A DNA stretch of 32,000 nucleotides, taken from a virus (taxonomy: Duplodnaviria > Heunggongvirae > Uroviricota > Caudoviricetes). Where the stretch lies: IMG/VR virus record IMGVR_UViG_3300022719_000283, positions 366,590 to 398,589 of that record; one strand, 5' to 3'. The position numbers and the translations under genes are program-made. The notes below the pieces were generated by a model. It searched no databases. It was given only the letters and a program-made list of their open reading frames with translations, and had not been told where the DNA came from. Of the stretch, positions 1,356 to 24,461 are shown one piece after another; within the stretch, counting starts at the first letter, position 1, and each line of letters begins with the position of its first letter.

Positions 1356-2732
1356 ATGTCTTCCCACACCAAAAAGCCCGAGCTCTGGCTCAAGTTTCTA
1401 GAACAGAAGTTCGGGGCGGAGGGAGGGCGGACTAAAGTTCCGAACACGAACACCGAATCTCGTGACAAGTACCCCAAGGTCACGGTTTTCACTCTTCTGC
1501 GCACCGACAGCCGATTCCGGCGCCAAGTCCTTCAGGAATATCGGCGATGGCGACAAGCCCTCAAAGAACAGGCGGCCAAGGGCACTCGTCGAACACCTAT
1601 CCGGATCAAGAGCAAGATCGAGGTGCCCAAGGGAGCACACGCCATCCACAAGTTGATGAAGGATGCCGGCCACGAGCTCTATCTCGTAGGAGGCTCCGTG
1701 CGAGACCATGTGCTCGGCAAGAAGCCCAAGGACTTCGATCTTGCTACGGAGGCATCTCCCGAACAGATCATCGACATCTTGTCGAAAGACAAGCGATTCA
1801 AAGACAAGCTGGACCTCACGGGTGAGCAATTCGGTGTGGTCCGAGTGCGCGATCCGGAAGGCGAAGAATACGAGATCGCCACTTTCCGTGAGGACATCGG
1901 GGAAGGACGTCGCCCGGACGAAGTGAAGTTCACGACCATCGACGAGGATGTGGCTCGCCGGGACTTGACCATCAACGCTCTGTTCTACGACCTGGATACG
2001 AATGAGATCGTCGACTACGTGGGAGGTATTAAAGACGCCAAGGAGGGCGTTATCCGAACTGTGGGGCGCCCCAAGGATCGCTTTCGTGAGGACAAACTTC
2101 GAGTGCTCCGAGTGCTTCGTTTTGCGGGACGCCTAGGCGCTGAGATCGATGACGAGACCTCGAAGGCGATCAAGGATGATCCTGACCTGCATGAAGTGTC
2201 CTCCGAACGCATCCACGATGAGTTCGTTCGAGGCATTACATCGGCGAAAGACCCGAAGCACTACCTCAAAATGATGGATGACCTCAACTTGTTTGAGCAG
2301 GTGTTCCCCGGCCTCAAAGTGGGCAAGACCTACCTGGACACACCGGACCCAGTTCTCCAGATGACCAGTATCCTTCGGGACAACAAACCCGAAGACATCG
2401 AACGAGTCATGCGCGAGATGACGTACACGAAGAATGAGATCCAGAAGGTCTTGTTCTTGCTAAAGATGCGGGATCTCGAGCCGGAAACCGCGTACGGTCT
2501 CAAGAGGGTTTTCAACAAACTGAAGCTGAACCCCTCCGATCTCATGGCCGCAGCGAAAGCTCTGGGGACTCCTTCCATCGACAAAGTCAAAGCCTTCGCC
2601 AACTTTGCCGAGGCACCCCCCGCGTTGACGGGCAAAGAGCTCCTGGAGCGCGGAATGAAGAAGGGCCCAGAGATGGGTCGGGCCATCGCCAAAGCCGAGC
2701 AAGAAGCCTACGAAGCCCTTCTGGCGGACTAG
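1356..2732 (+). CDS. cca: CCA-adding enzyme / tRNA nucleotidyltransferase (class II, PolyA_pol head domain) with an N-terminal extension of about 85-95 aa
   Basis: Motifs present: LYLVGGSVRDHVLGKKPKDFDLAT (GGxVRD...DxD), RRDLTINALFYD and EDKLRVLRVLRFAGRL. The GGSVRD motif starts only at about residue 112, so the N-terminus is extended. No C-terminal HD motif was seen. Confidence 0.9.
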   Translation: MSSHTKKPELWLKFLEQKFGAEGGRTKVPNTNTESRDKYPKVTVFTLLRTDSRFRRQVLQEYRRWRQALKEQAAKGTRRTPIRIKSKIEVPKGAHAIHKLMKDAGHELYLVGGSVRDHVLGKKPKDFDLATEASPEQIIDILSKDKRFKDKLDLTGEQFGVVRVRDPEGEEYEIATFREDIGEGRRPDEVKFTTIDEDVARRDLTINALFYDLDTNEIVDYVGGIKDAKEGVIRTVGRPKDRFREDKLRVLRVLRFAGRLGAEIDDETSKAIKDDPDLHEVSSERIHDEFVRGITSAKDPKHYLKMMDDLNLFEQVFPGLKVGKTYLDTPDPVLQMTSILRDNKPEDIERVMREMTYTKNEIQKVLFLLKMRDLEPETAYGLKRVFNKLKLNPSDLMAAAKALGTPSIDKVKAFANFAEAPPALTGKELLERGMKKGPEMGRAIAKAEQEAYEALLAD

Positions 2733-4245: not shown

Positions 4246-4800
4246 TCAGTCCTTGGGTAGGGAGGGCTTGTCGGACCCAGAAGCCAGATGATGCATACGA
4301 GACAGGAAATCATCCGGCTCAGAAGAGCGTATACGATTGTCCTGAAACTTGTTTTCGGGATCTTCCTGTTCCTCGCGGGTCAGCCACGCCATCCGGTAGC
4401 TGTCCGGGAAGATGTCGGGCCCCAGGTAGAACAGGATGCCGGTGTCGGAGCCGTCCACCTGAAACTTCACCTGCTTGAGCTTGGCGATGTGTTTCACGAC
4501 GGACCACGCACACTTGGAACCGTCTTCGAGCACGAGGACGGGGTTACGAGAGGTTCCTACCGGGAGCTCCAATTCCCAGGAGGTCCAACCACGATCCGGA
4601 GGACGATAGACAATACCTCCTTTCTCTGTGACCTGAGCCAGGTCGAGCTCGATGAGAACGGGGTCGATGTCCATCGTGTGCAACCAGAGCTCACGCGTAC
4701 CAGGCCAGACTGCCTTGGCAATCTCCCGCGCATGTCCCCGATTTTCGAGCTTGAGTAGGTTCGTGAAAAACTCTCGGAAAAGGTCTTTGGGTTCCATCAT
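4246..4800 (-). CDS. Hypothetical protein
   Basis: 184-aa ORF. It is coupled to the upstream gene by a 4-nt overlap. No motif was recognised. Confidence 0.6.
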   Translation of the reverse strand: MMEPKDLFREFFTNLLKLENRGHAREIAKAVWPGTRELWLHTMDIDPVLIELDLAQVTEKGGIVYRPPDRGWTSWELELPVGTSRNPVLVLEDGSKCAWSVVKHIAKLKQVKFQVDGSDTGILFYLGPDIFPDSYRMAWLTREEQEDPENKFQDNRIRSSEPDDFLSRMHHLASGSDKPSLPKD

Positions 4801-5339
4801 GCGTCCTTTTTCGGGCCATCCCTCAGTATCTGGATGGCGGGTTCGATGTGCTCGTCGAGTAGTCCTCTCTCCCGGGATGTCCGGACTAAGTGAGGAGCCA
4901 GGTAAACGAAACTGTCAGGGCCCATGTCGTCCAGGATCACGAACTGGTTTTCGACCTCGAGCTCTGGGTTCTCGAGGATCCAGGTGTGGATCTGATGGCC
5001 CCGGACCACGTACTGGCCGAGACAGATACCACGACCTCGTACCTGAGACGCCGTAGGAGTTCGTCCGATCACTTTTCCTTGGAGCCCTCTTTTGTCCAGG
5101 ATCCGCTGCATGTCGTTAGAGGTGCAGTGATAGCGCCACGAAGAAGAGATCACGACTTGGGCTTCGGTAGCTTCCAAGATTTTGTTGAGTCGGTCGACAG
5201 CAACCGGGTCCACCATGTGGCACCACCAGTCGTCGCTACCCTCCTTCGGGAAACCGAGATCGTCCTCTTTTCGTAGCAAGTCGAAGAATACCGTGCTGTT
5301 TAGAACCCCGTCCATGTCCAAGAAGAGAATGCGGGTCAT
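4797..5339 (-). CDS. HAD-superfamily phosphatase-like protein
   Basis: N-terminal MTRILFLDMDGVLNS gives HAD motif I (DxDGV). VVISSSWR is motif-II-like. The size and layout resemble stand-alone HAD domains and polynucleotide 3'-phosphatase-like domains. Confidence 0.65.
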   Translation of the reverse strand: MTRILFLDMDGVLNSTVFFDLLRKEDDLGFPKEGSDDWWCHMVDPVAVDRLNKILEATEAQVVISSSWRYHCTSNDMQRILDKRGLQGKVIGRTPTASQVRGRGICLGQYVVRGHQIHTWILENPELEVENQFVILDDMGPDSFVYLAPHLVRTSRERGLLDEHIEPAIQILRDGPKKDA

Positions 5340-5879: not shown

Positions 5880-5912
5880 AAAAAGCCCGGTGGGTTCAGG
5901 ATCCCACCGGGC
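5880..5912 (-). terminator. Rho-independent terminator immediately after the EF-Tu stop (possibly bidirectional)
   Basis: On the minus strand, GCCCGGUGGG-AUCCUGAA-CCCACCGGGC forms a 10-bp GC-rich stem and is followed by UUUUUC. On the plus strand the same stem is followed by CAGGUUUUU. Confidence 0.75.
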
Positions 5913-5919
5913 CAGGTTT

Positions 5920-7077
5920 TTAGGCGCTCACCTCCAGGACTACGCCTGCTCCGACCGTTTTTCCGCCTTCGCGGATGGCGAAGCGCATGCCGGGCTCACA
6001 GGCCACGGGCTTCTGGAGATTGAAGGTGATCTCCGCACGGTCACCGGGGTTCACTGATCCCACGTCTCCGACATCGACCACGGCGGTTACGTCGGCGGCG
6101 CCGAAGAAGAACTGGGGCTGGTACCCGGTCCCGAAACCGGTGTGACGACCTCCCTCCTTCTCGGAGAGGGTGAAAATCTCCGCCTTACCGACCTTGTGAG
6201 GCTTGATGGAGTCCGGCTTGATCGCCACCTGACCCCGCTGCACTGCATCACGCTCCACACCGCGCAGGAGAAGCCCGACATTGAGGCCCGCTTTGGCCGC
6301 CGGGATGTCCTTGTGGAACGCCTGGATGCCTGTCACGACCGCCCTGATGGGCTTGTTGTCCGTGCGACCGATGACCTCGACTTCGGTGCCTACGGGGATG
6401 CTTCCGCGCTCCACGCGACCGGTGACGACAGTCCCACGACCCGCGATGGTGCACACACCTTCGATGGGCATCAGGAAATCCCCTGACTCGTCACGCTCCG
6501 GGACCTTGAGGTGGCTGTCCATGGAGGATAGAAGCTCCTTGATGGGCTCGAGGTCATCTCCCTCGAGAGCTTTGAGCGCAGATCCCTTGATGATGGGTGT
6601 GTCCTTGAAACCCTGGGACTCAAGCATCTCGGTGACTTCCATCTCGACGAGCTCGAGCATCTCCGGATCGGCGATGTCCACCTTGTTGATGAACACGACC
6701 ATCTGGCCCACGTTTACCTGACGAGCAAGCAAGATGTGCTCACGCGTCTGGTGCTGGGGGCCCTGGCTTCCATCCACCAGAAGGATCGCCCCGTCCATCT
6801 GGCTCGCACCCGTGATCATGTTTTTGATGTAGTCCGCGTGACCCGGGCAATCGATGTGCGCGTAGTGACGGGTCTCGGACTCGTACTCGACGTGAGAAGC
6901 GGAGATCGTGATGCCACGCTCCTTCTCTTCCTTCGCATTGTCGATCTCCTCGAATGCCTTGGCGTTGCCCCCATGGAGCTCCGCGCAGATCTTCGTGATC
7001 GCGGCTGTGAGGGTGGTCTTCCCATGGTCGACGTGACCGATGGTTCCGACATTGAGGTGCTGCTTTTGCTCGTACAT
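5920..7077 (-). CDS. tuf: Elongation factor Tu (divergent, 385 aa)
   Basis: Starts [23 protein letters not shown] (P-loop). Also has [25 protein letters not shown] and the [16 protein letters not shown]-terminus. The track ORF (5920-7293) runs on through two tRNA genes. The true ATG is at 7075-7077. Confidence 0.93.
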
Positions 7078-7132: not shown

Positions 7133-7217
7133 TGGTTGGTGGGGTCGGAATCGAACCGACCGTGCGTAATACGCTGCGGATTTACAGTCCGCTTCGCCAC
7201 CTTGGCTGTTCCCACCA
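7133..7217 (-). tRNA. tRNA-Tyr(GUA), bacterial class II type, CCA encoded
   Basis: Anticodon arm GCGGA-CTGTAAA-TCCGC, long variable arm, T arm GTCGG-TTCGATT-CCGAC, then CCCACCA-A-CCA. The 85-nt length matches bacterial tRNA-Tyr. The exact 5' end (U1 versus G1) and the D-arm register are uncertain by hand. Confidence 0.8.
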
Positions 7218-8257: not shown

Positions 8258-8803
8258 TTATACCCGTGTGGCCATGAGGGACTTGTCGAACATCCTTCGG
8301 TAAGTGAGAGACACTCTAGCCCCCATCTTTCTTGATCCTTTGGGGATCCTGTGTTCGTATGCCTCCTGAAATCCAGGAGGCATAACAAACAAGGAACCCG
8401 GCTCGAGCAATTTCCTGTTGTTCTCGGGGACAACCCCTCTATCCCCGATTTTCCTCCACCAAATTTCCCTGGCCTCACCAAAAGACACAACGGAGATCGG
8501 GTCTGAGCTCGCGGTATCCGGCGAATCGTCGGAGTGCCAGCCAAGCGCATTCTGTTCGCCCTCGTACCTATTGAGAAAACAGACGTTCGGATTGCCCGGC
8601 ATCTTGGCCATGATGTCAGCGACCCAAGCCAACATGGGGGTTGAGTAGTAAGTCCGAACCCCCCGACCAGAGCCGTAGACGTAGGCTCTGGGGTCGGCCG
8701 ACATGAAGCACTCACGTCTGGCGTTGATCCGGTCTTCCCACGTCACGGATTCGAGAGCGCCTTCGGGGAGCCCCACGAAGGCGGGTATGTATGCGGGTTC
8801 CAT
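8258..8803 (-). CDS. alkB: 2OG-Fe(II) dioxygenase, AlkB-like
   Basis: GWHSDDSPD (HxD), ...YEHRIPK... (second His) and ARVSLTYRR (RxSxTxR). The ATG at 8801-8803 is preceded by GGAGAAG. The track ORF starts at a GTG at 8824. Confidence 0.8.
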   Translation of the reverse strand: MEPAYIPAFVGLPEGALESVTWEDRINARRECFMSADPRAYVYGSGRGVRTYYSTPMLAWVADIMAKMPGNPNVCFLNRYEGEQNALGWHSDDSPDTASSDPISVVSFGEAREIWWRKIGDRGVVPENNRKLLEPGSLFVMPPGFQEAYEHRIPKGSRKMGARVSLTYRRMFDKSLMATRV

Positions 8804-8918: not shown

Positions 8919-9055
8919 AAGAGCTCCCAGGAGCTACCTGGGAGATTCAAGAGTAAGAGAGGTTTTCCACCCCCACCGCCCTAAGCGGCGTCTGACCTTC
9001 CAGGGAGCGTCCTCCCCAGCTTTCGCGATGCCTCGCAGTAGTCAGTTCTTTCTCT

Positions 9056-9142
9056 TGGTACCGATGAGAGGGGTCGAACCTCCAAGGGATTACTCCCACA
9101 GGATCCTTAATCCTGCGCGTCTACCAGTTCCGCCACATCGGC
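9056..9142 (-). tRNA. tRNA-Leu(AAG), class II, CCA encoded
   Basis: GCCGATG-TG-GCGGAACTGGTAGACGC-G-CAGGA-TTAAGGA-TCCTG-(variable arm)-GGAGG-TTCGACC-CCTCT-CATCGGT-A-CCA. The 7-nt loop UUAAGGA puts A at position 34. Confidence 0.8.
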
Positions 9143-9295
9143 AAGTCTAAGAGCGAGAGAGTTGAAGAGATGGTGTTGCTACGCGCTCTATCCAACTGAG
9201 CTACTCCCCGTCATTGTCGGGGAGGCAGGGCTCGAACCTGCGACCTCGGGTACCGAAAACCGATGCTTGTGATCTCATCGTAGTTCTCGCTCTTA
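9143..9295 (-). ncRNA. Permuted tRNA-like module P1 (T arm and 3' acceptor strand upstream of 5' acceptor strand and D arm, with a terminal helix)
   Basis: Minus-strand order is as follows. It opens with U-AAGAGCGAGA (9294-9285), A, and CUACG (9283-9279). Two small hairpins and AGGUC follow. Next is the T arm GCAGG-UUCGAGC-CCUGC (9241-9225), then CUCCCCG-A (9224-9217) and the linker CAAUGA. The second half is CGGGGAG (9210-9204), UA, and GCUC-AGUUGGAUA-GAGC. It closes with G, CGUAG (9183-9179), 20 nt, and UCUCGCUCUU-A (9158-9148). The acceptor strands are 7/7 complementary. The RNA ends form an 11-bp helix and abut the flanking tRNAs. Confidence 0.6.
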
Positions 9296-9372
9296 TGGTC
9301 GAGGCGAGAGGATTTGAACCTCCGACCCCCGATCCCCCAGATCGGTGCGCTGCCAGACTGCGCTACGCCTCG
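9296..9372 (-). tRNA. tRNA-Pro(GGG), CCA encoded
   Basis: CGAGGCG-TA-GCGC-AGTCTGGCA-GCGC-A-CCGAT-CTGGGGG-ATCGG-GGGTC-GGAGG-TTCAAAT-CCTCT-CGCCTCG-A-CCA. Confidence 0.9.
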
Positions 9373-9783: not shown

Positions 9784-9874
9784 AACTGCTGCACCCCCTC
9801 CGGTGGGAACCGCCCCCACAACCTCCGAGGACTGCTCGGTGTTCTTCTCGTTGAACTACGGAGGATGTGCAGCA

Positions 9875-11125: not shown

Positions 11126-11869
11126 CTACTCCTCGGTCTCCGGGTTCGGCTTGTGTTTGTAGCCTGGCGGATTGTCGAACCCTTTGAAGATGTAGCCCTT
11201 GTCCTCGCCGTTCTCGAGAAGACGGATGGAGCAGTTCTTCGGGTTCGATTCCTTTTCGAGCCATTCAGGAGCCATATGTAGCCATGCCATCGTGAAACAC
11301 CGGTTAGTAGTGCCGTGACCCACGACGACGATGTTTTCAATCTCGTGCTTTTCCTCGTCACGTTTGAAGGTGCCGAAGGCTTGGTGCATGCGACGAGCCA
11401 CATCGATCCTTGACTCTCCCATCGGGAGCTTGGCCCAAACCTTCCCTTCGAACTGTTTGCACTTCTCGTAGTGCTCCGTCTCTGCTGGGTACAGGTTGCG
11501 GCGCTCCTCGTCGGAGAGACCGTCGAAGATACCGAACTGCTGCTCGTGCAGGAGGAAGTGCTCCTTGCGGTCGAAGAACCAGCTCTGGCCGTCCGCCGGA
11601 TGTCCCGGCCGCGAGATCCGGCAAGCCTCCTCGACTCCATCGGCGGTCTGACGCGTACGCCGGTAGGGGCTGTGCCACAGGCGAATTTTCGTGGGCTGCG
11701 GAGAGCTGCCGAGGTGCTCGCGGAAGTAGTTGGCCAGGAACTCTCCGGCCCTCTTCGCCTGCTCCTTGCCCTCCTCCGTGAGCTCGATGGCGTGATCCGC
11801 AACCCGGCGGTTCTCCGACCAGTCAGCGTTGGCGCGGCTCATCCCATGTCGAACTAGAAAGATCCTCAT
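11126..11869 (-). CDS. Histidine phosphatase (phosphoglycerate-mutase-like) family protein
   Basis: MRIFLVRHGMSRAN gives the RHG catalytic motif and ...VVVGHGTTNR the second His. The ATG at 11867-11869 is preceded by GGAGAAG. The track ORF is extended to 11986. Confidence 0.8.
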   Translation of the reverse strand: MRIFLVRHGMSRANADWSENRRVADHAIELTEEGKEQAKRAGEFLANYFREHLGSSPQPTKIRLWHSPYRRTRQTADGVEEACRISRPGHPADGQSWFFDRKEHFLLHEQQFGIFDGLSDEERRNLYPAETEHYEKCKQFEGKVWAKLPMGESRIDVARRMHQAFGTFKRDEEKHEIENIVVVGHGTTNRCFTMAWLHMAPEWLEKESNPKNCSIRLLENGEDKGYIFKGFDNPPGYKHKPNPETEE

Positions 11870-11933
11870 TGTTCTTCTCCTGTGTTTGTCCGTTCTCACC
11901 AGTTTTACTCCTATCTCGAGTACAATTGTTGAA

Positions 11934-12551
11934 ATGCGACGCTGGACCCCTGTAGCCCTCGTGGCGTTGCTGGCCTGCGCCACCACGCTTGATCCTGTTC
12001 CTGCGGATCCCCCGACCTGCCCAGATTTGGAGCCGGCTCCCGTCGACTACGACCGGAAACTCTACAAGCACTGGACTGACGCCGACGGGGATTGCCAGGA
12101 CGCGCGCCAAGAGGTCTTGATCCGGGACTCCCAGGTCCCTGTAACATTCGACGGGGAACGCCAATGCCGGGTCGCTACAGGCCAATGGACCGACCCTTAC
12201 AGCGGAGACGTCGCCACAGATCCCTCCCTGGTGGACGTGGACCACGTCGTGGCCCTTCGCGACGCCCACGACTCAGGAGGCCATCTGTGGGCCCCTAAGC
12301 GTCGTGAGAGCTTTGCCAATAGCTTGGAGGGCCTGGTGGCCTCGGGACGCTCCACGAACCGTTCCAAGGGCTCCAGGGGGCCTGACGAGTGGCTGCCGCC
12401 CCTGACGTCCTACCGGTGCCAGTACATCGAAAATTGGCTGGCTGTGAAGAGCTCCTGGGAGCTCGAGCTGGCCGAAGACGAAAGTGCGCGGATCACATAC
12501 ATGCAGAAGATCTGTGCCGCCGGCCAGGTCCCGGTGCTCCCCCAGGGTTAA
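11934..12551 (+). CDS. Secreted or lipoprotein HNH/His-Me-finger nuclease (DUF1524 / GmrSD C-terminal-like)
   Basis: MRRWTPVALVALLAC is a signal peptide with an LLAC lipobox-like cysteine. Nuclease motifs are ...DVDHVVALRDAHDSGG..., ...STNRSKGSRGPDEWLPP and YRCQYIENWLAVK. Confidence 0.75.
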   Translation: MRRWTPVALVALLACATTLDPVPADPPTCPDLEPAPVDYDRKLYKHWTDADGDCQDARQEVLIRDSQVPVTFDGERQCRVATGQWTDPYSGDVATDPSLVDVDHVVALRDAHDSGGHLWAPKRRESFANSLEGLVASGRSTNRSKGSRGPDEWLPPLTSYRCQYIENWLAVKSSWELELAEDESARITYMQKICAAGQVPVLPQG

Positions 12552-20196: not shown

Positions 20197-21435
20197 TCAC
20201 GCGAAGTGGCCTCGGATGGTGTTGAGGGCCGCTTTGAGACCACCCTCGGTCTTGGGGAAAGTTTCCGTGGAGTGCCCCTTCCCGTAAATCCAGAGCTCTG
20301 TCTCGATGGTATCTCCGGCTACGGTGCCCCACTTGAGCGCGGCCGTCTTGCGAGGGCCCGGATCTTCCTGGTCGTTGTCTTCGTCGTATTTGAAGGTCTC
20401 CTGCGGATGTCGAGACGCGATACGGGGACGGAAGAACCAGAAGTTCTTCTCCCCTTCCTCACGGTCTTTGCCGGAAGATCCAATCCAGCCGAGCCCCTTG
20501 AGCTCGAGATCGGGATCCTTCTCGAGTAGCTCTTTGAGCAATGCCCAGGTGAGGTCCGTATCGCGCCATCGTCGGAAGTCTTCGTCCTGTTTCTTCTTGT
20601 ACTCCTGGCGGCGCCGATCTTGCTCCTGGCGGTAGTCGGATTTCCAGGTGTCCAGCACCACCAAGACGTCTCCACGACGTTCGAGCGTGAGTTTCAGATC
20701 TACCTCCCGATCCCAGTTGGATTCATCGTCGTACGTTTCTCCGATCTCGTTCAACTGCTCCATCGAGATATCATCCTCCCTTTGGCCCGTTGGCTTGAAG
20801 ATCGAAGCCGACTCGTAGACCGTGATGGTTCCGTCCTCATTGAAAGTAGGGTCTTTCTCATCGGCATAGAGGGCTGTTTGGGTCGCCTCGGAAAGATGGT
20901 CCTTGTGTTTCTCGTACTCCTCGACCGAGGTGATGACGGGGATCTCGGGCCAGCCTTTGCTGGGGTCCCTGAAATCGTAAAACCGGAACTCATACGGGGC
21001 AGCCCAGTGGCATCCGTCGACCAGGAGCGTCTGGCCGTCGGGGCTCAGAAAAGCGCGGGCCCAGCAAAACCCCAAGCCATCATAGTGGTACTCCTGGGGC
21101 TCGTGCTCGATCCCGGCATCGAGATCCACGATGGTCTGGCTCATGTACGAACGCCCGGTGATCAGGTACTCATGGTCATCCTTGGTGACGAACGAGTGAT
21201 GAAATATCGAGTAGTTGCGCACGATGTCGCAGACCATCTCGTCATCGGAGACCCGGTAAACAGTTCCGCGGGAGTAGTTCCAGCATCCTTCCTTGGTCGC
21301 GTACCAACGGATAAGCAGCCGGTAGCGACCTGAAGGAGACAGCTTCTCTTCGGTTTTCGATTTCTGGTTCTCCGGGCAGATGAACTTTTCGGTTTCGCGC
21401 CGGTTTTTCAGATTCTTCTGTGTGGTGTCTTTCAT
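20197..21435 (-). CDS. Hypothetical protein (412 aa)
   Basis: The start MKDTTQKNLK (ATG at 21433-21435) is preferred because the track extension overlaps a tRNA-like gene. The central and C-terminal regions are charged. No motif was recognised. Confidence 0.7.
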   Translation of the reverse strand: MKDTTQKNLKNRRETEKFICPENQKSKTEEKLSPSGRYRLLIRWYATKEGCWNYSRGTVYRVSDDEMVCDIVRNYSIFHHSFVTKDDHEYLITGRSYMSQTIVDLDAGIEHEPQEYHYDGLGFCWARAFLSPDGQTLLVDGCHWAAPYEFRFYDFRDPSKGWPEIPVITSVEEYEKHKDHLSEATQTALYADEKDPTFNEDGTITVYESASIFKPTGQREDDISMEQLNEIGETYDDESNWDREVDLKLTLERRGDVLVVLDTWKSDYRQEQDRRRQEYKKKQDEDFRRWRDTDLTWALLKELLEKDPDLELKGLGWIGSSGKDREEGEKNFWFFRPRIASRHPQETFKYDEDNDQEDPGPRKTAALKWGTVAGDTIETELWIYGKGHSTETFPKTEGGLKAALNTIRGHFA

Positions 21436-21449
21436 GGTTTGTTCTCTCT

Positions 21450-21524
21450 TGGCGCCCTCGGCAGGATTCGAACCGCACGACCTTCTCCCGTGAAGGAAAT
21501 GCTCTACCACTGAGCTACGAGGGC
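21450..21524 (-). tRNA. tRNA-like gene, Val(CAC)-like, with weak anticodon and T stems (possible pseudo-tRNA)
   Basis: GCCCTCG-TA-GCTC-AGTGGTA-GAGC-A-TTTCC-TTCACGG-GAGAA-GGTCG?-TGCGG-TTCGAAT-CCTGC-CGAGGGC-G-CCA. The acceptor is 7/7 and the D arm is fine. The T stem pairs only 2-4 positions and the anticodon stem has a C:A mismatch. A competing hairpin is CCTTC-ACGGGA-GAAGG. Confidence 0.5.
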
Positions 21525-23313: not shown

Positions 23314-23640
23314 ATGATGCGTTTTCCCAAAGGGAAGGTGCCAGGCCAAAGTTCAAGCCCGGAAACCTCTGCTCAACACTCGCGCGTGTTTTCATCCGGT
23401 GCCTATTTCATCAGCCGTCTCACTGGTAACGTGATCGCAACCCTCCTGGTCGCGATGTTGATTTTCTTGGCTTACGTGATCTCAACGTTTGTCACACGCG
23501 AACACCAGATCAAGCACTACAAGAAAGAACAGAAACAACTGCGCCGGGAAATGGACGAGCTCAAGGACAAAAACCTCCTGTTCGAGAGGCGCATGGTGGA
23601 GCTCGAAACCGAGCTGGAGAACATGGAGGAGGGCAGATGA
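23314..23640 (+). CDS. Small membrane-anchored coiled-coil protein
   Basis: I prefer the start at MMRFPKGK because the track ORF begins inside the 22-bp hairpin. It has a hydrophobic segment VIATLLVAMLIFLAYVISTFV followed by a charged heptad-like tail. An ATGA overlap couples it to the next gene. Confidence 0.5.
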   Translation: MMRFPKGKVPGQSSSPETSAQHSRVFSSGAYFISRLTGNVIATLLVAMLIFLAYVISTFVTREHQIKHYKKEQKQLRREMDELKDKNLLFERRMVELETELENMEEGR

Positions 23641-24461
23641 GACTCGACTGGCTAACGGATCCACATCTCGATCATCTCCGAGACGAGGAGATGCTCCTGG
23701 CGTTCGTGAAGAAACTACATAGCCGTCCATCCGACGGATTGCTGATCACGGGAGACATCGCGGAAGGACCCACCATCTACGAGTTCCTGGGACTCGTCTC
23801 TGGGGCCTACCAACGTCCGGTGTATTTCGTTCTCGGCAATCACGACTTCTTCGGTGGGTTCATGAGCGATGCGCACCAAGAGGTACGAACAGTCTGCCGC
23901 GCTGTGCCCCAGGGAATCCTGAACTGGATGACTGATCGTGACTTCATCATGCTCGACGAAACAACCGCACTCGTCGGGCATGACGGGTTCTACGATGGGC
24001 AGGCGGGTCAAGCAGGTCTCACCTTTTCGTTGCCCGACTTCTTTTTGCCAGGCGGAAACAGGGACCTCATCCAAGCGTTGGAACTCGGATCTCGCCATCT
24101 TTTCCGATTGCTTGAACGGCTTGGTCGGGAGTCTGCCGCCTTTCTTCGAACCCAGATCCAGGGCGCCATTCGCTACGGAGCTCGGCGCGTTCTCGTCATC
24201 ACGCACGTACCCCCCTTTCGCCAGGCGAGTTATTTTCGCGGTCGTCCTTCCGAACCCCACGCGGTTCCCTTCTACGTAAACCAAATTTTAGGGGAGGAGC
24301 TCCTTGAGCTTGCGGGGAAATTCCCGAACGTGAAGATCGAAGTCTACGCTGGACACACTCACTGTGAGCGGGTGTATGAAGCCGCCGACAATCTGGTGGT
24401 GCATGTAGGGCGGGCTCGCTACGAGCGACTCCCCACCTTTCAGCAACCGATTGTGATCTAG
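23637..24461 (+). CDS. Metallophosphoesterase (calcineurin-like) family protein
   Basis: All five motifs are present: LTDPHLDH (DxH), ITGDIAEG (GDxxE), LGNHDF (GNHD), VITHVPP and AGHTHC (GHxH). Confidence 0.85.
   Translation: MRLDWLTDPHLDHLRDEEMLLAFVKKLHSRPSDGLLITGDIAEGPTIYEFLGLVSGAYQRPVYFVLGNHDFFGGFMSDAHQEVRTVCRAVPQGILNWMTDRDFIMLDETTALVGHDGFYDGQAGQAGLTFSLPDFFLPGGNRDLIQALELGSRHLFRLLERLGRESAAFLRTQIQGAIRYGARRVLVITHVPPFRQASYFRGRPSEPHAVPFYVNQILGEELLELAGKFPNVKIEVYAGHTHCERVYEAADNLVVHVGRARYERLPTFQQPIVI

Follow-up and report, generated by a model that had tools for sequence, protein, structure and literature searches.

A Probable YrlA-Family tRNA-Mimic RNA Encoded between Two tRNA Genes of a Large Uncultivated Phage

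[quoted passage not shown] Here, we analyze a 32,000-nt stretch of DNA (the window) from a large uncultivated phage (IMG/VR record IMGVR_UViG_3300022719_000283), with ~57% G+C and 13 tRNA genes, and in particular P1, the 153-nt spacer that lies between tRNA-Pro(GGG) and tRNA-Leu(AAG) on its minus strand (9295-9143). Sequence comparison makes it very probable that P1 is a member of the YrlA family and a tRNA-mimic RNA. The fuller reading that we favor, with a probability of about 0.7, is that P1 is a phage-encoded YrlA-family RNA that would be released from the tRNA array, presenting a stem to a Ro60-type protein and a tRNA-like part to an effector. The YrlA class is already known, phages included, and its resemblance to a permuted tRNA is already in the literature; P1 reveals neither a new class of gene nor a permuted decoding tRNA in a phage. 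What is new is a well-supported subfamily at a fixed position of a tRNA array, with ends defined by tRNAs and with no linked Ro60-like gene found. Full-text literature searches returned no description of YrlA-type RNAs placed flush in phage tRNA arrays without Rsr.

The published layout of YrlA consists of a 5'/3' stem, an internal loop, a V hairpin, a T arm, a closed acceptor stem (AS), and a D arm (PMC4201824; bioRxiv 10.1101/312249), and most YrlAs look like tRNAs that have been circularly permuted and whose acceptor stems are closed (bioRxiv 10.1101/312249). Binding by Ro60/Rsr and modification by TruB and DusA are further traits of the family. The parts of P1 and its two neighbors, in the order of the transcript, are as follows.

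9296..9372, minus strand: upstream neighbor tRNA-Pro(GGG), CCA encoded (ARAGORN; Rfam tRNA model, 59.7 bits)
9285..9295, minus strand: 5' strand of the terminal helix H1, UAAGAGCGAGA, RNA positions 1-11 (from the sequence); candidate Ro60-binding stem
9272..9284, minus strand: 5' strand of the internal loop, ACUACGAU, then the 5' strand of helix H2, GAGAU; RNA positions 12-24
9249..9261, minus strand: V hairpin GGU-UUUCGGU-ACC, RNA positions 35-47, the "V" stem-loop of YrlA
9242..9248, minus strand: C48-G49, paired with C113-G114 (a 2-bp anticodon-stem remnant), then the variable loop AGGUC (equivalents of G46 and C48)
9225..9241, minus strand: T arm GCAGG-UUCGAGC-CCUGC, 5 bp
9204..9224, minus strand: closed acceptor stem, CUCCCCG, loop ACAAUGA, CGGGGAG; strands 7/7 complementary
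9182..9203, minus strand: U8-A9, D arm GCUC-AGUUGGAUA-GAGC, G26, then C-G
9164..9171, minus strand: 3' strand of H2, AUCUCUUC, whose core AUCUC pairs with GAGAU
9148..9158, minus strand: 3' strand of H1, UCUCGCUCUUA (from the sequence)
9143..9147, minus strand: 3' tail GACUU, also the 5' leader of tRNA-Leu (from the sequence)
9056..9142, minus strand: downstream neighbor tRNA-Leu(AAG) (ARAGORN; Rfam tRNA model, 49.2 bits)

The stretch after UAAGAGCGAGA and ahead of the V hairpin reads ACUACGAUGAGAUCACAAGCAUC, and that between the D arm with its G and UCUCGCUCUUA reads CGUAGCAACACCAUCUCUUCAACUC. Together with the UA that follows it, the D-arm segment (9182..9203) makes up the signature GAGCGCGUA, whose columns are invariant in the module alignments. 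The initial annotation of this DNA had described the T arm, the acceptor strands, the D arm, and an 11-bp terminal helix on the minus strand, and the sequence is as it described. The helix begins on the base that directly follows the CCA of tRNA-Pro; its other end lies 5 nt short of G1 of tRNA-Leu, and not 6 nt as had been given. The nucleotides of the tRNA elbow are all present: U8, A14, G15/C48, G18G19, G46, U54-A58, and C56 (T loop UUCGA). These invariant elbow nucleotides, the order of the parts, the variable loop AGGUY, and the UA and GCG elements are common to P1 and the YrlAs of family RF02553 (S. Typhimurium, PDB 6CU1; M. smegmatis; Bxz1/ET08-type mycobacteriophage). A V stem-loop stands upstream of the T arm, and CUAC, a YUAY sequence, occupies RNA positions 13-16 of P1 and is not kept in all relatives. 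An extra helix, H2, which separates the terminal stem from the tRNA-like core, distinguishes P1 from the known YrlAs.

Several results support membership of P1 in the YrlA family. In a sensitive Rfam scan, YrlA (RF02553) matched P1 with 37 bits (E 1.3e-6) over model positions 23-86, the tRNA-like module, covering 9180-9249; it was the sole non-tRNA family at E < 0.1 in the region, the tmRNA and sX4 families scoring 11-12 bits (E 0.4-4.3). The relative L141 matched the whole model, 1-114, with 48.2 bits (E 1.3e-8). The first two DNA patterns that we ran against IMG/VR returned mostly ordinary tRNA-tRNA junctions. A core pattern (GGTTCGANNCC, gap, TAGCTCA, gap, AGAGCGCGTA) yielded 48 viral loci, at least 36 of which have the closed acceptor stem, and of the open reading frames (ORFs) directly downstream of the viral modules that were tested, seven encode TROVE/vWA_Ro60 and three encode DUF2828/DUF7788. 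The same pattern found 31 loci in bacterial species genomes, 26 of them with a same-strand Ro60-like gene 63-3182 nt away, and the core signature thus marks the classical YrlA-Rsr pair (PMC4201824). A covariance model, R2, was then built from 42 modules that have a same-strand TROVE/DUF2828 gene within 3.5 kb and that include no sequence of the P1 family. It gives P1 85.5 bits (E 4e-26), the relatives of P1 76.6-89.1 bits, the YrlA located ~190 nt upstream of the Ro gene of ScottMcG (a Bxz1-type mycobacteriophage) 63.9 bits, and ordinary tRNA-tRNA junctions at most 51 bits. The suggestion of the initial annotation that P1 is a tRNA mimic of the YrlA type is thus supported by the Rfam match, the R2 score, and the agreement with the published layout.

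Two loci carry two YrlA-like modules in tandem (L151, 817-883 and 971-1041; L253, 3520-3609 and 3843-3930), which recall the YrlA/YrlB pairs of Salmonella and M. smegmatis. The modules can also be split into a "GGUUAC-type" (17/20 TROVE-linked) and a "CAGCAA-type" (mixed or none, including P1); the regular expressions behind this split were fitted afterwards and we do not rely on it.

No phage genome nearly identical to the window was found by searching. Homologs of graded similarity exist for the neighboring AlkB-like gene (8258-8803, minus strand), and their contigs carry the element on the same side of that gene. In all, nine lineages of the element were recovered from metagenomic and viral contigs, always at the Pro(GGG)|Leu position; besides P1, the family includes L136 (= L137, L138), L140 (= L141), L142, L194 (= L195, with L216 and L217 nearly identical to it), L196, L220, and L169, the last from a 141-kb IMG/VR contig. 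The tRNA-Pro(GGG) neighbor is seen in 8/9 lineages, the contig of L142 stopping before it. The distance between the tRNA-like core and the upstream tRNA is 27-31 nt in every lineage, and that to the downstream tRNA is 31-37 nt; the 3' tails of the homologs are 2-6 nt long and mostly U-rich. The AlkB proteins beside the element are only ~65-88% identical across the nine lineages. Beyond this range, the element was not found in the AlkB-based viral relatives L121-L123 (33-52% identity); a P1-specific pattern had 0 matches in 185,579 species genomes, which gives no clue to a prophage or a host, and blastn of the core against cultured phages returned just tRNA junctions or unannotated T arms.

The structure itself is conserved in this family. 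The predicted minimum free energy of P1 is -55.3 kcal/mol (z = -3.2), a value that 1/200 shuffles attained; the D arm is not drawn in that fold. Acceptor strands that are 7/7 complementary occur in just 6/134 T-arm/D-arm junctions of viral contigs, and the chance rate is ~0.1% per junction with G-U allowed. We aligned eight family sequences and examined them with RNAalifold and by counting pairs, using slid partners and 500 shuffles as controls. Among 35 predicted pairs, 20 show a compensatory change; 95% of the cells are paired, compared to 43-51% with the partners slid, and none of the 500 shuffles reached the observed values. The individual helices behave as follows.

H1 (terminal): 10-12 bp; covaries, 7/10 predicted pairs compensatory
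H2 (GAGAU/AUCUC): 6 predicted pairs; covaries, 3 compensatory, 91.5% paired
V hairpin: 3 bp with a 7-nt loop; 3/3 pairs covary in the family, 92.6% paired across 36 YrlA-like modules
T arm: 5 bp; covaries, 100% paired
Closed acceptor stem: 7 bp; covaries, 100% paired, compensatory in 5/7 pairs in the family and 7/7 across the 36 modules
D arm: 4 bp; invariant, 100% paired

Across the 36 modules the core is 97.5% paired, and all but one of them have the same CG/CG pairs (35/36). The acceptor stem has been rewritten repeatedly and yet remains paired: it reads CUCCCCG/CGGGGAG in P1, CCCCCUG/CAGGGGG in L136, CCGGCGC/GCGCCGG in L140, CUGGUCC/GGGCCAG in L142, and CUCCCGC/GCGGGGG in L220. Similarly, H2 of L136 is GGGGAU/AUCCCC, a compensatory version. 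The 7/7 complementarity of the acceptor strands, already noticed in the initial annotation, holds in the sequence and is upheld by compensatory changes in the homologs. The covariation that it had proposed to look for in homologous contigs was found in the acceptor, T, and terminal helices, with the D arm invariant. The alignments thus show, for the structure as predicted, a conserved and covarying set of helices (H1, H2, V, T arm, 7-bp closed AS, and D arm) with a complete tRNA elbow.

The order of the parts (T arm, 3' acceptor strand, spacer, 5' acceptor strand, D arm) is also that of the circularly permuted tRNA genes known from Cyanidioschyzon merolae, from other algae, and from some archaea, which pass through a circular intermediate to a decoding tRNA and keep an anticodon arm. 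In those genes, as in P1, the 3' half of the cloverleaf lies upstream of the 5' half, and a short loop joins the acceptor strands. P1 could accordingly be read as a true permuted or split tRNA gene, the second proposal of the initial annotation, whose ends would be ligated or held together and whose acceptor loop would be opened to produce a decoding tRNA. The 7-bp acceptor stem with A73, the CCA encoded in some members, and the RNA ligase and Tpt1 encoded by relatives all favor this. Unlike the algal and archaeal genes, however, P1 has no anticodon arm, just the 2-bp CG/CG remnant after G26, and no conserved junction loop; its joined ends would form a long irregular helix capped by a loop of 2-7 nt that is not conserved and offers no constant 7-nt loop. 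The "anticodon stem" CUACG/CGUAG that had been proposed is complementary in P1 only (55% paired across the homologs, with 0 compensatory changes), and it conflicts with the conserved H2, so that the two cannot coexist as a nested structure. The hairpin that was thought to display a UCG anticodon proves to be the V hairpin, with a 3-bp stem and a 7-nt loop, and its "anticodon" positions vary: UCG, ACG, ACG, ACG, UGG, UCC, and AAG in seven distinct family sequences (L216 repeats the ACG of L194). Such a 3-bp stem with a 7-nt loop is also found in YrlAs that adjoin Ro60 genes. The tRNA-Pro-like identity is likewise not conserved, since the 1:72 pair flips between C-G (3/8 aligned sequences) and G-C (5/8). 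Neither ARAGORN, which the initial annotation had recommended, nor the Rfam tRNA model calls a tRNA between tRNA-Pro and tRNA-Leu. A permuted decoding tRNA thus appears extremely improbable.

Permuted tRNA-like domains occur in two-piece tmRNA as well, where the T arm and the 3' acceptor strand lie upstream of the 5' acceptor strand, as in P1. We rejected a two-piece or permuted tmRNA as the identity of P1: the Rfam models tmRNA_permuted and cyano_tmRNA score 11-12 bits, the third acceptor pair is G3-C70 and not G3:U70, there is no tag ORF and there are no pseudoknots, and ARAGORN calls no tmRNA.

A T arm, an acceptor strand, a short spacer, another acceptor strand, and a D arm are also what one sees where two ordinary tRNA genes adjoin, and such junctions score up to ~51-54 bits. 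On these grounds P1 might have no function of its own and be what is left of two neighboring tRNA genes in decay, with the 3' half of the first and the 5' half of the second, perhaps a tandem duplicate. The origin model for YrlA proposed by Sim and Wolin, as cited in bioRxiv 10.1101/312249, is a dimeric tRNA transcript. However, compensatory changes in nine lineages have preserved all helices of the element, among them H1, H2, and V, to which nothing in a junction corresponds; the length and placement of the element are constant, and it is homologous at the sequence level to bacterial YrlAs linked to Ro60. For the present state of P1 a decaying remnant is refuted and is left with next to no probability, while an ancient origin of this kind may be correct.

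The flush placement between two tRNAs, together with the presence of other structured spacers in the same array (e.g., 8919-9055, z = -3.4), would suit a purely cis-acting element, one that, for example, helps RNase P or RNase E to separate the neighbors and gives rise to no stable product. However, a spacer would need neither a full elbow whose tertiary-contact nucleotides are invariant nor homology to a family of trans-acting RNAs, and close relatives do without the element at the same site. We regard a spacer function of this sort as very improbable.

Several observations weigh against the YrlA-Ro60 reading that we favor. P1 (37 bits) and L141 (48.2 bits) both fall below the Rfam gathering score of 69. 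This says little, because all the phage YrlAs tested fall below 69, including that of L176, where only 65 nt separate the module from a TROVE gene (31.7 bits), and that of L151, a 1.3-kb locus too short to hold a partner (39.1 bits); for the ScottMcG YrlA no Rfam match was reported at E <= 1e-4. The R2 model favors P1-like sequences, because the pattern from which its training set came was derived from the D-arm signature of P1 itself. The motif GNCGAA(N0-1)G is inexact throughout the family: AGCGAG, within the 5' strand of H1, in P1 (and likewise in L136 and L220), UCCGAAG in L194 and L216, UACGAAUG in L140, and ACCAAAA in L142. The exact motif is also absent from 28/29 other distinct viral modules, most of them Ro60-linked, which makes it a test of low power (L169, of the P1 family, was counted apart). 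The element is missing at the syntenic site both in L191, the closest relative by AlkB identity (89%), and in L215, where an ordinary tRNA-Leu-like gene takes its place, and searching the rest of these two loci with the model gave no copy; it is hence dispensable or mobile. In L191 (2645-3330) the spacer between Pro(ggg) and Leu(aag) is filled by a small ORF that by eye resembles a helix-turn-helix or endonuclease gene, which suggests replacement by a mobile gene.

Further adverse findings concern the partner protein. YrlA RNAs have been defined by their location within 4 kb of a Ro60 ortholog on the same strand (Chen et al. 2014, PMC4201824), and no such ortholog (TROVE) lies within ~4 kb of P1 on its strand, which sets it apart from the known YrlAs; its GNCGAA motif is also only approximate. 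No TROVE, vWA_Ro60, or DUF2828/DUF7788 domain was detected in the 32-kb window, 9 kb downstream and 22.7 kb upstream of P1 (Pfam on 30 ORFs, PHROGs, hhalign), and the gene tables of the available flanks of L136, L216, L220, L169, L196, L194, L140, and L142 list no Ro60-like gene. A tblastn search with nine Ro60-like queries found none in the nine family loci. By comparison, ~19/27 other viral and 26/31 bacterial signature modules have a same-strand Ro60-like gene within ~3.2 kb. A 414-aa ORF (20197-21441) was considered as a hidden Ro60 and rejected (hhalign probability 0.1%, no PHROG). The initial annotation had advised a search for Ro60/Rsr and RtcB genes; the window and the relatives' flanks yielded neither. 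Given the fraction of each genome that was covered, a distant Ro60 gene or a Rsr of the host is possible, and we put the chance that P1 works with a Ro60 partner at slightly less than even.

YrlA-type modules adjoin DUF2828/DUF7788 genes in both phages and bacteria (L155, L160, L167, L174, L181, L233, and L242). In profile comparison, these proteins match Ro60 over its C-terminal half, the end of TROVE plus vWA (hhalign 97%, E 6.5e-11), and they may constitute a second family of Ro60-like partners for Y-like RNAs.

The missing partner gene invites a reading in which P1 is a Ro60-independent tRNA mimic, one of a lineage of "orphan" YrlA-type RNAs that reside in phage tRNA arrays and are matured wholly by the tRNA-processing machinery. 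RNase P would act on the downstream tRNA and on the acceptor loop, the CCA-adding enzyme of the phage would follow, and the outcome would be a nicked, two-piece, CCA-tailed tRNA look-alike devoid of an anticodon. Such a molecule could titrate or guide tRNA-recognizing proteins, either toxins and defense enzymes of the host or the phage's own CCA-adding enzyme, EF-Tu, and repair enzymes; it might be a decoy for host defenses that attack tRNA acceptor ends or elbows, or a partner of these phage proteins, and the lineage would provide living intermediates for the proposed origin of Y RNA from dimeric tRNA transcripts. The lack of a Ro60-like gene in ~32 kb here and in the flanks of eight relatives is consistent with this, as are the acceptor loop, which always starts A/U-C and contains ACCA in three lineages, and the tRNA-handling genes nearby (CCA-adding enzyme, EF-Tu, AlkB-like, and HAD_SAK_2, with RNA ligase, Tpt1, and PTH2 in relatives). 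Other viral modules embedded in tRNA arrays (L156, L162, L166, L168, and L185) similarly have no Ro60-like gene in the stretch examined. But three further array-embedded modules (L153, L158, and L164) still have TROVE genes 0.9-1.4 kb away; array embedding is recurrent and does not by itself exclude Ro60. Moreover, about a quarter or less of the genome (likely 80-140 kb or more) is covered, so that a distant Ro60 gene is possible, and the 5'/3' stem with its internal loop, the Ro60-binding layout, is conserved and covaries, a feature that a pure decoy of acceptor and elbow would not need. Overall, we consider a Ro60-free lineage of this type to be unlikely.

If P1 is instead a YrlA-family RNA that serves a Ro60-type protein, its life cycle might proceed as follows. 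It would be co-transcribed within the Pro/Arg/Leu tRNA array, in which we found no sigma-70-like promoter or strong terminator. Maturation of the 3' end of tRNA-Pro(GGG) and cleavage by RNase P at tRNA-Leu(AAG) would yield an RNA of ~150 nt; since both ends of P1 abut tRNA genes, which is not the arrangement of known YrlAs, its maturation would depend entirely on tRNA processing. This mode of release is plausible, and the flush placement that it presupposes is conserved in the nine lineages. The ends of the liberated RNA would pair as the 11-bp H1, followed by the internal loop and H2. RNase P would then open the acceptor loop, and the CCA would be completed, possibly by the nucleotidyltransferase of the phage (1356-2732). 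The stem made up of H1, internal loop, and H2 would be bound by a Ro60-type ring protein, whose gene would have to lie in another part of the phage genome or in the host, and the tRNA-like part would recruit or occupy a tRNA-recognizing effector, as in Ro60-Y RNA-PNPase complexes.

For the acceptor loop, there is a precedent: the YrlA of M. smegmatis, the one experimentally studied case, has a 7-bp acceptor stem like that of P1, a feature that makes that RNA a substrate for RNase P and CCA addition, and it undergoes both in vivo (PMC4201824). In the P1 family the stem is always 7 bp and the loop starts A-C in 8/9 lineages and U-C in L140; in L194, L216, and L196 it reads ACCAUUUAU, in which a discriminator is followed by CCA and a short A/U spacer. 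The 7-bp stem and a loop that starts with a discriminator A and a C make it probable, by analogy, that RNase P opens the loop of P1 and that the RNA acquires a CCA end. A loop that looks like a tRNA trailer is not unique to this family, since many YrlAs of the Rhodobacteraceae have ACCAU loops.

The subfamily makes two questions open to test: whether YrlA-type RNAs can act without Ro60, or with Ro60 supplied in trans, and whether YrlA derives from dimeric tRNA transcripts, as Sim and Wolin proposed (cited in bioRxiv 10.1101/312249). It also argues that the spacers of phage tRNA arrays should not be treated as empty, because phage YrlAs escape gene callers and fall short of the Rfam YrlA threshold. 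There are many Y-RNA-like examples in viral contigs, in or beside tRNA arrays, and a "Ro-like RNA binding protein" is annotated in 356 cultured phage records. A report on the Thermus phage phiLo (PMC12135203) describes Yrl1 and Yrl2, with phiRo60, which were identified by a stem-bulge-stem structure and a CGAA motif; these phage Y-RNA-like RNAs, like P1, have a 5'-3' stem and an internal loop with a CGAA-like sequence, but in those phages the RNA immediately precedes the Ro60 gene, whereas for P1 no partner gene was found. Phage T4 also produces small stable RNAs of unknown function within its tRNA cluster, species 1 and 2 (rnaC and rnaD; NC_000866), which abut a tRNA. They were examined as possible relatives of P1 and discarded: model R1 detects no module in them, and rnaC just ends in an ordinary T arm and acceptor strand.

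The surroundings of P1 are rich in genes that relate to tRNA or RNA: CCA-adding enzyme, EF-Tu, AlkB-like dioxygenase, HAD_SAK_2, histidine phosphatase, GmrSD_C, UvrD, and metallophosphoesterase. Those of the tRNA/RNA maintenance cluster, which includes the histidine phosphatase and the metallophosphoesterase, are located as follows.

1356-2732, plus strand: CCA-adding enzyme
4797-5339, minus strand: HAD_SAK_2 ("Swiss Army Knife" RNA-repair HAD domain)
8258-8803, minus strand: AlkB-like 2OG-Fe(II) oxygenase
11126-11986, minus strand: histidine phosphatase
23637-24461, plus strand: metallophosphoesterase

The relatives add an RNA ligase (PF09414) and Tpt1 (PF01885), both in L215, and PTH2 in L142. 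The EF-Tu of the phage (5920-7293, minus strand) has all three domains (GTP_EFTU, E 4.5e-60) and is conserved in L216, L217, and L220; its real start is probably downstream of tRNA-Tyr (7133-7217). By the DUF7873 protein, the nearest cultured phages are Arthrobacter and Gordonia phages, at ~47% identity.

Two other permuted modules are present in the window. P2 (17380-17464, minus strand), which no tool calls as a tRNA, consists of a T arm (GGAGG-UUCGAAU-CCUUC), UCCCCGC, U-CCA-CUUUAU, GCGGGGG, UG, a class-II-like D arm, and a hairpin (ACGGC-UAUGAAG-GCCGU). It has no YrlA GAGCGCGUA signature, scores 22.9 bits with R1, and has no Rfam match at E <= 1; in its homolog in L216 (~2300-2400) the acceptor stem is preserved by a compensatory swap, UCCCGCC/GGCGGGG. 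P3 (~17160-17285, minus strand) has a T arm (CGCGG-UUAGAAU-CCGUG), GGGGUAC-A-CCA, a structured insert of ~57 nt, GUACCCC-UG, and a D-like arm. Its acceptor stem in L216 (2508-2606) is GGCCCUC/GAGGGCC, with 5/7 pairs changed on both sides; L216 holds the only homolog among the loci fetched, and none was found in IMG/VR. Direct repeats of CUCAAGCUCAAG border both of these modules.

Next to tRNA-Leu(aag), the 137 nt that separate it from tRNA-Leu(cag) (8919-9055, minus strand) form a spacer that folds into multiple hairpins with a terminal helix (-61.5 kcal/mol, z = -3.4) and is not conserved, a spacer of 9-26 nt or a tRNA-Leu(gag) occurring in the relatives. In two of the arrays that carry YrlA-like modules there are Rfam matches to cow-rumen-3 (108 bits; L168, 7261-7401) and cow-rumen-4 (55.8 bits; L185, 2912-2981). 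ARAGORN reports a "tRNA-???" in the window (21450-21524, minus strand) with a 2-nt "anticodon" (ca) and an Rfam tRNA score of 51.4 bits, and others with 4-nt "anticodons" in L216 (tcaa, 285-364) and L220 (tctc, 5902-6002); they might be miscalls, or else tRNAs of the frameshift or suppressor type. Lastly, the spacer between tRNA-Arg(acg) and tRNA-Arg(ccg) (9833-9874, minus strand) contains, ~25 nt after tRNA-Arg(acg), the D-arm-like GUAGUUCAACGAGAAGAAC (R1 junction match, 33.5 bits), a stretch that may be a degenerate tRNA remnant.

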